The notes under the pieces were generated by a model. It did no database searches. It saw only the letters and a program-made list of their open reading frames with translations, and was not told where the DNA came from. From NCBI RefSeq assembly GCF_024502345.1, contig NZ_JALDNN010000001.1: a stretch of DNA of 64,000 nt; one strand, given 5' to 3'. Positions 31 to 6,948 of the stretch are shown here, piece by piece. Each line of letters starts with the position of its first letter. The first letter of the stretch is position 1. Made by a program: the position numbers and the translations under genes. The DNA is from Escherichia coli. GTDB lineage: Bacteria > Pseudomonadota > Gammaproteobacteria > Enterobacterales > Enterobacteriaceae.

Positions 31-597
31 TCAGAAGTGAGGCTTACGAGGACGCCCTGCAGCAGGCCGTTCAGGAACTTCATTGCAACCGTAGGCACAC
101 AGCCCGTCTTTTTGTTCTTCTTTCGCCAGATAATGCAGGACACCGCGAATATTATCGATGCTCCCGGGATCGTTATGACGCACGGGGATGTTGATGTTGT
201 ATGTATAATGCGGCTGATATGTACAACGGTGCACCGAACCGCTGTTATGCGTAATAGACCGCCAGCATTCCGTAATCCGCTCCGCAAAGGGATATATTTT
301 TTTAACTCTCTGACGATCGATCCAGAAAACCGCATGCGCATGAAAACCATGATCAGCCGTCCATTCAATCACCCAGAAGAAGCCAACGATATTTTCAAAT
401 TGTTCCACCTGCTCCAGCAGCATACGCAACTGCAATTCAAGCCAGCGGTGATCAGGTTGTAAGAAATCAGGCGTATCTTTCCTGTAGAAGAAATCCATCC
501 GTAAGGCCCGCAGGCAGGAATAGCGTGCCATCATTTGATTGATGTGATGGTCAAGTAAGGCGGTAAAAAACCAGTTTGGTGTGTAAGATTTAGGCAT
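31..597 (-). CDS. YagK/YfjJ-family protein (inovirus Gp2-like, HUH-motif replication-initiator-like)
   Basis: 188-aa ORF with His-hydrophobic-His motif (HAHAVFW) and overall resemblance to CP4-prophage YfjJ/YagK proteins; recognised by eye. Confidence 0.5.
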   Translation of the reverse strand: MPKSYTPNWFFTALLDHHINQMMARYSCLRALRMDFFYRKDTPDFLQPDHRWLELQLRMLLEQVEQFENIVGFFWVIEWTADHGFHAHAVFWIDRQRVKKIYPFAERITECWRSITHNSGSVHRCTYQPHYTYNINIPVRHNDPGSIDNIRGVLHYLAKEEQKDGLCAYGCNEVPERPAAGRPRKPHF

Positions 598-1751
598 GTT
601 GATGACTCCTGAAAGTTAATGACGTTTTAAGCTCTGTGAGCGAATTAATGCTTTCGCTCATAATCAGATCTAAAACGGTAATAACTTACAGACGGTATTT
701 ATCAGGCATGCTGTAGCAGAATGGATACGACGGGTTATTAACGACGCGTAGCGTTGTGCTGAAAGGAATAGGTTATCTGATGGCATTGACTAAAGAAATG
801 AGATAAACGAGGAGCGAATAAAATACAGACTCAATAAAACATCACGAAATACTGTAAAATACGCGCTAAAACCCCACTAACTGGCGCATTACGGCCAATC
901 ACATCATAAACTACAAACTTGCTCTCAGTGGTTCTAAAAAAAAACGTGTACAAAGCCAACGCAATAAACTTATACGCCCTCATCCAATCTGTTCTTAAGG
1001 ACATGAACGTTAACCGCACACATTACCAGAGTAAAAAATACCACTGGCATGATTTTTACCCTGCATCTTAAACAATACAACCCGAAACAAACATAATCAG
1101 GAATTCACTCTGTTGATTCTGTTGTTTATCCAGCTCTGTTAAACATGACGGAATCATGGATACTGTATCAAAGAGTAAACATTCAGTTAATCAGTGATGA
1201 CAAAAGAATTGATGTTCACCAGAATAGTTAAAACACTTCAGATAAACAATTATCGTTAAGTAAATACAGTTCATGATAAATAAGATTAAGATCAATTGCT
1301 GTTTCAGTGAAGACTGATAACAGATGGATATTAGCAATAGCGTAGTAGAGAATAGCTTATCTGAATATCATATGAGTTACAGTAATTATGATTGGGGGAT
1401 GGAGTGAATACGATAACAAGAGTAATACTAATGGAATATGTAAAGATTGAGAGTGAGTGAAGACAGGAAATAAATAACAATAGAGATTATATCAAAAAGG
1501 GAGTGAGTATAATAATAGTAATAAACCTAAATTAAAAACATCCATGTTTTATGTAAATACAAATCTGTTTCATAATTATGTACAGAAGTTCGTTATAACG
1601 AATATGTAAATAATTCAGTGTAAGTGCTGCCATATTAAAGGTGATCGCTCAGGTGTCAGCGCCAGCGATAATAAGACGGTCACCATTTGGATTGTCCGCT
1701 CCACCCAACATGTTGTTTCCTTAAGGTTCTCACACCAGAAAGGACATCAAC

Positions 1752-2426
1752 ATGCTGAGCAGAGAGGACTTTTACATGATAAAGCAAATGCGCCAGCAGG
1801 GCGCGTACATTGTCGATATTGCGACTCAGATTGGTTGCTCTGAACGGACGGTCAGACGCTACCTCAAATACCCTGAACCGCCAGCCAGAAAGACCCGCCA
1901 CAAAATGGTTAAGCTGAAACCGTTTATGGATTACATCGACATGCGCCTGGCAGAGAATGTCTGGAATAGTGAGGTTATCTTCGCGGAGATTAAGGCAATG
2001 GGTTATACGGGCGGACGTTCCATGCTGCGTTACTACATCCAGCCCAAACGTAAAATGCGTCCGTCAAAAAGAACAGTTCGCTTCGAAACTCAGCCTGGAT
2101 ACCAGCTCCAGCACGACTGGGGCGAAGTTGAGGTGGAGGTTGCCGGGCAACGGTGCAAAGTTAACTTTGCGGTTAATACGCTGGGGTTCTCCCGCCGCTT
2201 CCATGTCTTCGCAGCACCAAAACAGGATGCTGAGCATACCTACGAATCACTGGTTCGTGCCTTCCGCTACTTCGGTGGTTGTGTGAAAACGGTGCTGGTT
2301 GATAACCAGAAGGCTGCGGTGCTGAAGAATAACAACGGGAAAGTCGTGTTCAACTCCGGATTCCTGTTGCTGGCCGACCACAACCAGAGCAGGAACATCT
2401 GCAGCCGTTACCGAGTTCTGCATTAA
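1752..2426 (+). mobile_element. IS21-family IstA transposase, N-terminal fragment (truncated remnant; no IstB)
   Basis: 224-aa ORF beginning MLSREDFYMIKQMRQQGAYIVDIATQIGCSERTVRRYL, an HTH N-terminus typical of IS21 IstA; ORF ends far short of the roughly 390 aa full length. Confidence 0.6.
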
Positions 2427-2808
2427 GCGCCGTTACGACAGTTAATTTCGTCAGCATACGGGAAAACTGATTGAGGTCGGCCTCGGTTTTGAGGCCTTTA
2501 GCCAGCTCAGCCGCAAGGACTTTAAGCGTCTTTTCGTCCACAATCTACTTGTCTACGTTGTTGGAGCGAACATATCAAAACCGGCAATTACACAATTTAA
2601 ATTACAGTCTCTATGAGAACAGTTCAATTTTTTAACTCTCGTTTTCCTCCCTGGCGTTATATGCATAAGCAACTTGAAAGACCCGATGATAGTTATAATT
2701 TCAGGTTATGTCCATGACGACCAATTTGTAACTAAAACAATAAACGGTAACGCTGCCATATAAGCATCAAAAGCGAGCATTACAGCAACATTCAACCGAT
2801 TAGATGTA

Positions 2809-4996: not shown

Positions 4997-5010
4997 CGCT
5001 TCCCAACCCG

Positions 5011-5889
5011 TTATTTCAGCGTGCCGAACTGTTTGTCTTTCAGTGCATATAGTCGGTCGAACTCAGCATAGGGCTCTCCCGTTTCAGCCGCGTGCCGGGT
5101 TTTAGCATCCAGAAGGTCGGGTAAAGGGATCCTATGATTCAGTGAGTGGTAAAGATCATAACCACTGACACAGATAACCCGCTTCCCTTTACCAAAAGCC
5201 GTCAGGCCTTCAGGCGTAAACCCCATCCAACTGATAAAAACACCGCGTGTCCAGGTTGCCTTGGTACTGAGTTTTCCTTCAAATACATGGAGGTCGGCAG
5301 CCGACGTTCTTTTCTGATGCCACTTTGCCTCCATCAGGTAAAATTCATCATTCAGCCGGAAACTTCCGTCAATCTGTTCTCCTGTATTTCGGAAAGACGA
5401 ACGAGGAGCAAGCTTAAAGATACTGAACAGTTCAGCAAGCCAGGCTTCAAACCGAAAACCACGTGGATGTGGCGGCAGAGATTTCATCTCGTTCATTTCA
5501 GCGATAAGTGAATGCCAGTCAACACCATGCCATGCCTGGACAGGCTTAACGCCTTTGGCTTCATCGGTGTCAGCGTTTTCTAAGCGGGAAATCAGTGCAA
5601 GATAGTCATTACGGCTTTGTTCAGCCTGTTCAGGCATGGATTCCGTTTTATACTGCCAGAGCGCACCAAGAACCCGCAGAGCGGTCTCACGATCAACCTG
5701 TTTCAGCAAGCATCTAACTCGTTTGGCTTTTGACGCCCCCTCTTTCTGATAACGTTCATCATCAATATCAATGTTCAATTCTTCATCGAAAAAAGCAGAC
5801 AAGGTGCGGTTAGAGAAATCCAGTATCCAGCCAGGATCGCTCTCGAACACGATATTAAACAGCCTCAAATCCTGCATTTTCAGTTTCAC
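5011..5889 (-). CDS. Mrr-cat-like PD-(D/E)xK nuclease-domain protein with an uncharacterised N-terminal domain
   Basis: 292-aa ORF with GTG start preceded by AGGAGG; C-terminal half has Mrr-type restriction-endonuclease motifs (GFRFEAWLAELF, GEQIDGSF, MEAKWH); N-terminal ~150 aa unrecognised. Confidence 0.5.
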   Translation of the reverse strand: MKLKMQDLRLFNIVFESDPGWILDFSNRTLSAFFDEELNIDIDDERYQKEGASKAKRVRCLLKQVDRETALRVLGALWQYKTESMPEQAEQSRNDYLALISRLENADTDEAKGVKPVQAWHGVDWHSLIAEMNEMKSLPPHPRGFRFEAWLAELFSIFKLAPRSSFRNTGEQIDGSFRLNDEFYLMEAKWHQKRTSAADLHVFEGKLSTKATWTRGVFISWMGFTPEGLTAFGKGKRVICVSGYDLYHSLNHRIPLPDLLDAKTRHAAETGEPYAEFDRLYALKDKQFGTLK

Positions 5890-6216
5890 GCCTACCTCCT
5901 TTTTTCACAGTATAACGGGATGAAAGTGGGGGAGGAAATGAGTCAGAACCTGTACACCAGCATTAGGGGATTCCGCGTCTGGTACAAAGCAGACTATGAG
6001 AAGAGAGACGCTATAACATTTGAGTCCTACCAATCGATCTGTTCATTTCTATGAATGGCAGTAAATGCAAATAACCAGAACAACCAAACGTTTTTCGACT
6101 TATGTGTCACGAACGGAAGTAGATGGCAATCCATTGCATTACTTCAGGACGACTTTTCAGAAAGCGAGCTAAGGGCGTTGGCATAAACTCAGGCATCGGA
6201 TGCTGTTTTACAGGGT

Positions 6217-6948
6217 TCACCTGCCATCCAGTAGACGCCCCGGCCCACGACTGCAACCATAATTACGTTGACCTGAACCATCATGCAACTTCGTTTCATT
6301 TTTCACGAGATAACTGGCTCTGTTCCGGGCTTTCTGCATCGCTTCCACATCACCACGCTTGATCCAGAGAACAGCGGCTTCACCAGACTTTTTGTCTGAA
6401 ACCTTCCTGGTTTCAGAACATCCACCAGGCACAGGCGTATCATCGGAAGAAGGGCGAGCATCAGATGATGTCGGTTTACGGAAAGGCGTCCGCCTGGAAA
6501 AATGAACCAGTCCATTACCCTGCCAGGGCTCAAGATGCAGAGCACTACACCATGCCAGCTTGATCAGTGTCGCCAGCGAAGAAGGAACGGTGAAATCCCC
6601 TGGCGAGCACCAGGTATCTTTGTTGAGCAGTAATATCACGTGATAATGTTTCCTGCCTTTTTCCTTGCCAAACTCCCGACACCAGAAATAACGCAGAGTG
6701 GTTGCACGCACACGCTTGTTGGCACGTCGTTTATGTCGCTGGTAAGCCTGAATTTTTGCTTTCAGGGATGCAAAAAAACGAGAAATCACCGCTGAATCTA
6801 AATCGGTATCCATGATGGTGGCAGGCATATACTCAGGGAAACGTAAATCCACCCGGATTAACGAGACGGCACGGTGTTGCGCCAGGGCACTGTTGAGAAT
6901 ACTTTCAAAACGGGATAACCAGTAAGCATTGTGTATTGGTTGATTCAT
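6217..6948 (-). CDS. YagK/YfjJ-family protein (inovirus Gp2-like, HUH motif)
   Basis: 243-aa ORF; RVDLRFP and HYHVILLL motifs resemble YfjJ/YagK of CP4 prophages. Confidence 0.5.
   Translation of the reverse strand: MNQPIHNAYWLSRFESILNSALAQHRAVSLIRVDLRFPEYMPATIMDTDLDSAVISRFFASLKAKIQAYQRHKRRANKRVRATTLRYFWCREFGKEKGRKHYHVILLLNKDTWCSPGDFTVPSSLATLIKLAWCSALHLEPWQGNGLVHFSRRTPFRKPTSSDARPSSDDTPVPGGCSETRKVSDKKSGEAAVLWIKRGDVEAMQKARNRASYLVKNETKLHDGSGQRNYGCSRGPGRLLDGR

Follow-up and report, generated by a model that had tools for sequence, protein, structure and literature searches.

A probable mosaic inner segment of a CP4-type island at pheU in Escherichia coli, containing two anciently related HUH Rep-like genes

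The 64,000-nucleotide stretch of Escherichia coli DNA analysed here (the window; NCBI RefSeq assembly GCF_024502345.1, contig NZ_JALDNN010000001.1) contains, at positions 31-6948, two genes encoding small Rep-like proteins of the HUH type, P1 (31-597, minus strand) and P2 (6217-6948, minus strand), together with insertion sequence (IS) remnants and intact genes. This region is probably an inner mosaic part of an island of the CP4 type, which has a P4-like integrase and is located at tRNA-Phe (pheU) in E. coli sensu lato. E. coli chromosomes match positions 1-9000 of the window, with the island of E. coli MB98 as the top match (98.3%), and at least 80% of these positions are present in 111 of 5,426 complete E. 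coli genomes. As the arrangement recurs as a block in these genomes, it does not result from chance co-occurrence. The block was found at pheV, at pheU and on an IncF plasmid; in the best-matching genome, it is on the pheV side, adjoining yghD/gsp/glc. In the window, the CP4-type backbone is followed by an attachment (att) core and the native pheU terminator, which form the right end of the island (Table 1), and the exact att core sits at the attP junction of record CP057032.1. The left end of the island lies outside the window, which contains no tRNA gene. The core genes of the window are 99.4% identical to those of E. coli. In what follows, loci compared in other records are labelled L001 and L008-L017, and H1 is a relative annotated by the Prokaryotic Genome Annotation Pipeline (PGAP).

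The two Rep-like genes are found on the same strand, with 5,619 bp between them, and PGAP names them "YagK/YfjJ domain-containing" and "inovirus Gp2 family" in a relative. The initial annotation, which described two YfjJ-like genes on the same strand about 5.6 kb apart, is correct in this respect: both open reading frames (ORFs) are where it placed them and the HUH motif is conserved in both. For each protein, homologues were gathered and diverse full-length members were aligned (alignment A1 for P1; alignment A2, cleaned to A3, for P2). The HUH motif corresponds to H86-A-H88 in P1 and to H101-Y-H103 in P2; it is invariant in both family alignments and the two motifs align with each other. The Y-x-x-K motif (Y156/K159 in P1 and Y213/K216 in P2) is also invariant, which is evidence of conservation and not of catalysis, as is an R-x-D motif (R32 and D34 in P2). 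P2 scores above the Pfam gathering thresholds of YagK_YfjJ_C (PF11726, 124.9 bits for a threshold of 25.8 bits) and REP_ORF2-G2P (PF23343, 35.7 bits for a threshold of 27.8 bits), and P1 scores below both, with 19.9 and 24.3 bits, respectively. When the P1 subfamily is considered, PF23343 is matched by 26 of the 26 members and PF11726 by 13 of them (E<=1e-3). P1 is more aptly called a REP_ORF2-G2P-like relative than a member of the YfjJ family.

The relationship between P1 and P2 is real but ancient. Pairwise BLASTP yielded nothing significant (E=1.5), whereas profile-profile alignment with hhalign gave a probability of 94.7% and an E-value of 5.6e-8 over 169 columns, with ~21% identity and with the R-x-D-L/F, H-u-H, Y-L-x-K, and Y-G-C-N/S blocks in register. 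The alignment of the two YfjJ-like proteins, proposed at the outset as a check, is thus positive for remote homology at the profile level and negative at the level of BLASTP. There is no DNA similarity between the flanks of P1 and P2 and no direct repeat within positions 1-10500, and each subfamily has members in other enterobacterial genera. P1 and P2 are ancient paralogues that belong to different subfamilies of small HUH (Rep-like) proteins. Both genes are under purifying selection, with ratios of non-synonymous to synonymous substitution rates (dN/dS) of 0.06-0.21 for P1 and of 0.23-0.39 for P2. As in the PF11726 and PF23343 families of small HUH Rep-like proteins, P1 and P2 exhibit R-x-D, H-u-H, and Y-x-x-K motifs in a single domain of ~190-240 aa. 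Unlike in these families, P1 is sub-threshold when taken singly and P2 carries an E. coli-specific insertion of ~46 aa, at about residues 152-197, inside which a frameshift is present in many P2 alleles of E. coli (214 aa). The AlphaFold2 model of P1 has a mean predicted local distance difference test (pLDDT) score of 87.9, a search of PDB sequences with the P1 and P2 profiles gave no match, and PADLOC gave no hit for either protein. We infer that P1 and P2 could be active HUH nucleases acting on island DNA.

The position of P1 and P2 relative to each other is best understood by comparison with simpler islands. In Klebsiella, Brenneria and Providencia, a single P1- or P2-type gene accompanies an AlpA gene. 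This Rep-like gene is oriented divergently from the GTPase/DUF932/antirestriction backbone and reads into variable cargo; the cargo in Klebsiella comprises a type I restriction-modification system and a Gabija-like pair. A P2 allele 84% identical to that of the window heads a simple layout in five E. coli contigs, where P2 is followed by a gene for a 190-aa protein (hyp190), AlpA, UCP030791 and cargo. The P1 module of relatives is organised likewise, with P1 followed by hyp190 and AlpA, and the latter two genes lie just left of window position 1. When the window is aligned with the simple layout of L017, positions 6520-8770 of L017 correspond to 8498..6178 of the window and positions 8841-8925 to 16..-68. 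The homology therefore ends at 6178, 39 bp past the P2 stop codon, and resumes at 16, 15 bp past the P1 stop codon. The genes that follow P1 are close to those that follow P2, with 173 of 190 residues identical for hyp190 and 74 of 78 for AlpA. These boundaries imply that about 6.2 kb (~17-6177) lie between P2 and hyp190, in the spacer that follows P2 in its operon. This interposed DNA carries P1 together with the ~1 kb upstream of it, hns, astA, the nuclease gene and the whole of the IS debris. P2 is in its canonical position, divergent from the GTPase backbone. P1 belongs to the brought-in DNA and is not a boundary of it, so the two genes do not bracket the interval as had been proposed. For the 190-aa protein itself (L001 19175-19747, L017 9065-9637), hhalign gives a match (88.5%, E=2.8e-6) that covers the P2 profile over its N-terminal two-thirds. 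This protein has "EYH" where P2 has "HYH" and has no Pfam family, and it may be a degenerate third paralogue.

The relatives of the window island support a composite built by accretion and IS activity. CP057032.1 contains three Rep-like genes and an internal 3.6-kb repeat with 86% identity, which corresponds to the whole P1 module (a hypothetical gene, AlpA, hyp190, P1 and the upstream DNA). In strain E371, two inverted CP4-type backbones flank the P1...P2 region, the second one being beside the P1 module. In L013, a gene with a TIR domain is found instead of the Mrr-like nuclease gene downstream of P2, and the TIR-bearing contig also contains a chimeric gene, P0100, with the N-terminal part of P1 fused to the C-terminal part of P2. 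Strand transfer by an HUH protein or a circle junction was considered for this chimera and rejected, as one junction contains an 81-bp IS2 end and the other shows only a 2-nt microhomology (GG). Of the composite or tandem island initially proposed, the composite part is consistent with these multi-module relatives, whereas a tandem or duplicated pair is not, given the ~21% identity, the unlike flanks and the absence of repeats. We infer the following order of events for the assembly of the mosaic. Each of P1 and P2 is normally the single head of such a module, so the presence of two heads would reflect the fusion of modules from different islands and not a duplication. This fusion would have been accompanied by IS-mediated truncations, with P1 now supplying the gene in front of hyp190 and AlpA. 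The mosaic would have been assembled once. Homologous recombination within the backbone that the islands share would then have carried the near-invariant block from one to another of the pheU and pheV islands, and also to a plasmid.

Seven copies of the block, one of them that of the window, were compared for conservation. Most pairs show essentially 100% identity over the interior (1649-6216). In the window, L001, L015 and L016, the IS fragments and the intergenic spacers are near 100% identical, like hns, astA and the nuclease gene, with 0 mismatches per 250 nt across 1500-6250 and at most 2 from position 250; L008 is at 98.6-100%, with a few differences in the IS2-like element. The hns gene is intact and 99.8-100% identical in five of the six other copies, the sixth (L009) having indels consistent with long-read errors. 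As the IS debris and the spacers are as conserved as the genes, the intactness of the genes is uninformative with regard to selection. The block is a young one that moves in one piece, and the intactness of its genes reflects this youth. Only the most diverged copy is informative, with 6 synonymous and 1 non-synonymous differences in the nuclease gene (compared with L014) and 0 and 1, respectively, in hns. The proposal that the cargo has been retained by selection is therefore not substantiated. The proposed repeated insertion and decay fares better with regard to the origin of the segment, which was built by accretion and IS activity, but an ongoing process is not supported: the mosaic is frozen and is transferred as a whole. 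More generally, the conservation of small genes in a young segment transferred as a block should not be read as selection.

At its P2 end, the block shows a sharp transition. The divergence jumps at position 6489, at about codon 153 of P2, and amounts to 9-21% in the P2 upstream region, which indicates a recombination breakpoint at ~6489. Three features coincide at ~6489-6495 (P2 codon ~152-153): the end of the block (first mismatch at 6489), the junction of the P0100 chimera (6494) and the start of the 46-aa insertion. Another copy of the block was observed on a 31.7-kb IncFIA/FIC plasmid record, CP088396.1 (L009), of which positions 559-8434 match window positions 1-7957 at 97.4% identity. 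This copy exhibits many small indels in every feature, which are probably long-read sequencing errors.

Both Rep-like genes are preceded by AT-rich, ORF-free DNA. The P1 upstream region is kept with P1 in L008 (to ~1348, 88%) and in L013 (to 1536-1566, 83-85%). The P2 upstream region ends at 8141, which is the edge of a block conserved in ~100 genomes. An iteron-like array was observed in the latter region at 7843-8010, 0.9-1.06 kb upstream of P2. It comprises six copies of A(C/T)GTGTA in the same orientation, interleaved with ACACTTA and TGCTTAGT motifs, and the rest of the region upstream of P2 (831 nt) contains none of these motifs. Seven other islands have kept the array, with 3-6 copies and indels of whole units.

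A sister island can excise, as shown by CP057032.1 (L008/L010). This 62,375-bp circular record has no typed replicon, holds an entire island and contains exactly one tRNA-Phe core (23 bp), which lies between the end of the DUF4942 gene and the integrase gene (junction 47057-47427), i.e. in the attP configuration. This record resembles an island that was excised as a circle, then assembled and deposited as a plasmid. The possibility that such islands are kept as episomes, which this 62-kb circle could suggest, is unsupported, as its junction is unique among 72,556 plasmid records. P2-type genes are also rare on plasmids.

Three other explanations were considered for the arrangement of P1 and P2. 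Both could derive from one YfjJ-like gene duplicated in tandem at this locus, the interval being filled later by IS insertions. The common strand, the common superfamily and the aligned motifs are compatible with such a duplication, but the two proteins share only ~21% identity, without significance in BLASTP, and their flanks have neither DNA similarity nor repeats within positions 1-10500. Moreover, members of either subfamily occur in other genera and in contexts with a single copy, and P1 has its own upstream region of ~1 kb, which recurs with P1 elsewhere. The in-situ duplication is effectively refuted. Alternatively, two complete islands could have integrated in succession at tRNA-Phe, in which case the accumulation of IS remnants would be the decayed junction, with an old att site and an integrase gene. 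Although relatives hold integrase remnants and several modules, and although E371 has a second backbone beside P1, this strict tandem integration is unlikely. Positions 1-9000 of the window contain no integrase remnant and, in a search for the tRNA-Phe core that allowed mismatches but no indels, no att core, the sole core being at 17709. The second backbone of E371 is inverted and not in tandem, and the interposed DNA lies exactly within the operon spacer of the P2 module.

The block could also be a discrete mobile unit, either a composite transposon bounded by ISs and carrying hns and astA, or a segment mobilised by the HUH proteins. Such a unit would account for the three types of location (pheU, pheV and an IncF plasmid) that harbour this ~8-kb block with 97-100% identity; in addition, two IS256-family fragments in the same orientation flank hns and the IS2-like element, and junctions recur near P2 codon 153. 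Nevertheless, identity to IS1414 is 69% for one of the IS256-family fragments and 88% for the other; both are truncated on the wrong sides and come in the order C-terminal then N-terminal, which does not make a transposon, and the terminal repeats or target duplications expected of a composite transposon are absent. The block has its edges within DNA for which the islands share homology, namely the P2 upstream region and the hyp190-AlpA tail, as homologous recombination would predict. Furthermore, the sole chimera examined is associated with IS2 and a 2-nt microhomology, and, in the IncF copy, indels are numerous and the context is incomplete. A discrete mobile unit is therefore very improbable. 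A mosaic of fused modules, spread by homologous recombination, remains the preferred reading of the region.

Several observations weigh against this reading. P1, as a single sequence, is below both Pfam thresholds, and no activity is reported in the literature for the YagK/YfjJ-type protein family. No clean target-site duplication is found at the junctions of the IS2-like element, and the order of the IS events is unrecoverable. A true insertion of 17-6177 is indistinguishable from a replacement by recombination between a P2-headed and a P1-headed module over their homologous hyp190-AlpA tails. The left boundary of the block lies beyond the window, so that the full unit is undelimited in this genome. 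Finally, the attP junction of the CP057032.1 type occurs in one of the 72,556 plasmid records.

A more speculative idea, which we regard as doubtful, is that P1- and P2-type HUH proteins form, together with hyp190 and AlpA, a DNA-processing module of CP4-type islands. Such a module could serve the replication or strand transfer of the excised circle and could act on the conserved ~1-kb AT-rich upstream regions, including the A(C/T)GTGTA array, which varies in copy number, and the junctions at P2 codon ~153 would be a linked recombinogenic site. If this were true, an island with several heads would be a replicative element of chimeric make-up and not a passive mosaic.

The IS debris consists of four fragments, of which all are defective (Table 1). 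The IS21-like fragment is 98.8% identical to an intact IS21-like copy (L012 2501-3236) and matches the NCBIfam model transpos_IS21 with 175.9 bits. In the IS2-like element, positions 1-449 of IS2 correspond to 3379-3822 (89%) and positions 887-1328 to 3821-4253 (86%), which leaves an internal deletion of ~437 bp (IS2 positions 450-886). For the IS1414 part, the similarity at the protein level extends to ~4996. In H1, PGAP gives the shorter IS256-family fragment the label "IS256 family transposase, missing C-terminus". When the minus strand is read, the N-terminal piece of the IS256 family comes after the C-terminal one; we considered the two pieces as halves of one split IS1414 and rejected this possibility on the basis of their different identities (69% and 88%) and of their geometry. 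These IS pieces are inert debris. The initial annotation recognised the three families, IS21, IS3 and IS256, but it listed three remnants and missed the fragment at 2417-2611. In addition, its coordinates (1752-2426, 3425-4125 and 4404-4996) are those of ORFs and not of elements; in the case of IS21, the ORF at 1752-2426 runs beyond the element into foreign sequence.

Table 1 Coordinates of the features in the window.
Feature	Position	Strand	Evidence
Segment interposed in the P2-hyp190 spacer, compared with the simple module	17..6177	.	Alignment to L017
P1, 188-aa HUH Rep-like protein (putative REP_ORF2-G2P / distant YagK-YfjJ subfamily)	31..597	-	ORF, subfamily alignment
AT-rich (GC 0.35) conserved ORF-free region upstream of P1	598..1566	.	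Travels with P1
IS21-like element, 5' 733 bp (left end and istA codons ~1-210)	1649..2381	+	Nucleotide and NCBIfam match
IS256-family 5'-end fragment, distinct from the IS1414 copy	2417..2611	-	69% to IS1414 5' end (L011 2625-2821)
H-NS-family gene, 146 aa, divergent paralogue	2809..3249	-	Pfam Histone_HNS 44.7 bits, weak N-terminal domain match
IS2-like (IS3 family) element, both termini kept	3379..4253	+	IS2 alignment
IS1414 (IS256 family), 3' part	4363..4958	-	88% to L011 1501-2132; Pfam and NCBIfam IS256 matches
astA (EAST1 heat-stable enterotoxin, 38 aa), inside the IS1414 remnant	4744..4860	-	Translation MPSTQYIRRPTSSYASCIWCATVCASCHGRTTKPSLAT
Nuclease, 292 aa, with an Mrr_cat (type IV restriction-like) domain at the C-terminus; gene immediately downstream of P2	5011..5889	-	Pfam 25.7 bits
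P2, 243-aa YagK/YfjJ-family HUH Rep-like protein	6217..6948	-	Pfam 124.9 bits
AT-rich ORF-free P2 upstream region	6949..8141	.	79-91% identity with indels
CP4-type backbone: GTPase, DUF932, antirestriction, RadC, CbeA antitoxin, DUF4942	10539..17597	+	Pfam; collinear with H1 annotation
attR core (tRNA-Phe 3' end, 1-nt deletion), then native pheU terminator; right island end	17709..17730	+	Sequence reading

With regard to the cargo, the H-NS-like gene and the nuclease gene are intact, as initially described, but a third intact gene, astA, had been missed. CP057032.1 and CP088396.1 also have astA annotated at this location. The majority of astA variants are found within IS1414 copies that have decayed (PMC12585946), and the window does not differ from this pattern, as it also contains an intact 38-aa ORF in a truncated, chromosomal IS1414. 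The "IS256 remnant" thus conceals a virulence-associated EAST1 gene from a reading limited to ISs. A close relationship between the H-NS-like protein of the window and the IncC plasmid H-NS found beside an intact IS1414 was also considered; the two proteins are not closely related. PADLOC gave no hit for the cargo genes of the interval, including the nuclease gene.

The segment is an already annotated (PGAP) stretch of mosaic island of a published kind. The modular, IS-separated makeup of pheV and pheU islands has been described previously, and these analyses give the Rep-like genes no more than "function unknown" (PMC11537424; PMC6174562). The GI-pheV and other pheU/pheV islands of E. coli with a P4-like integrase (PMC11537424; PMC6174562) and the K-12 cryptic prophages CP4-57, CP4-6 and CP4-44 have the same tRNA-Phe att core as the window island and the same GTPase-DUF932-antirestriction-RadC-CbtA/CbeA-DUF4942 ("yee") backbone. 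They also share with it an AlpA and YfjJ/YagK-type module, mosaic modules separated by ISs and variable cargo. No categorical difference is observed between these islands and the window lineage, which has 2-3 Rep-like heads of different subfamilies and a particular cargo, namely Mrr-nuclease/astA/hns. As it stands, the segment is of little consequence, being part of a well-populated, PGAP-annotated pheU/pheV mosaic. YagK/YfjJ-type HUH genes can nevertheless serve as landmarks, as they are found at the head of an AlpA-containing operon, beside the variable region of the island. The function of these genes, which is a question of the y-ome, is made testable by the conserved motifs, the purifying selection, the linked upstream array and the one excised circle.

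Other features of the window were observed outside the segment. The core genes of the window have their closest matches in the O55:H7/O157:H7 lineage. Downstream of the att core and the pheU terminator, an IS1 (17862-18629) follows and then abuts dcuS (18705). The genes cadCBA, dtpC and lysU, which lie between pheU and dcuS in K-12, are not present here, which suggests an IS1-associated deletion of the cad locus at 17731-18705. Deletion of the cad locus is known for Shigella and enteroinvasive E. coli (EIEC). No Rfam match was found at positions 1-10600. Just past the edge of the conserved block at 8141, a 295-aa ORF (8616-9503, plus strand) has no family assigned and exhibits a weak C-terminal match to ribbon-helix-helix or RepA-CopB-like proteins (E 0.002-0.17), as well as a 21-nt tandem duplication at its 3' end (9457-9498). 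In the backbone, the GTPase shows a weak LeoA/BC-like similarity according to PADLOC. The backbone also includes a 343-aa ORF (14753-15784, plus strand), in which the CbeA antitoxin domain is confined to residues 240-338; the usual CbeA/YeeU proteins are ~120 aa long, and this ORF is either a fusion or an over-extended ORF call.

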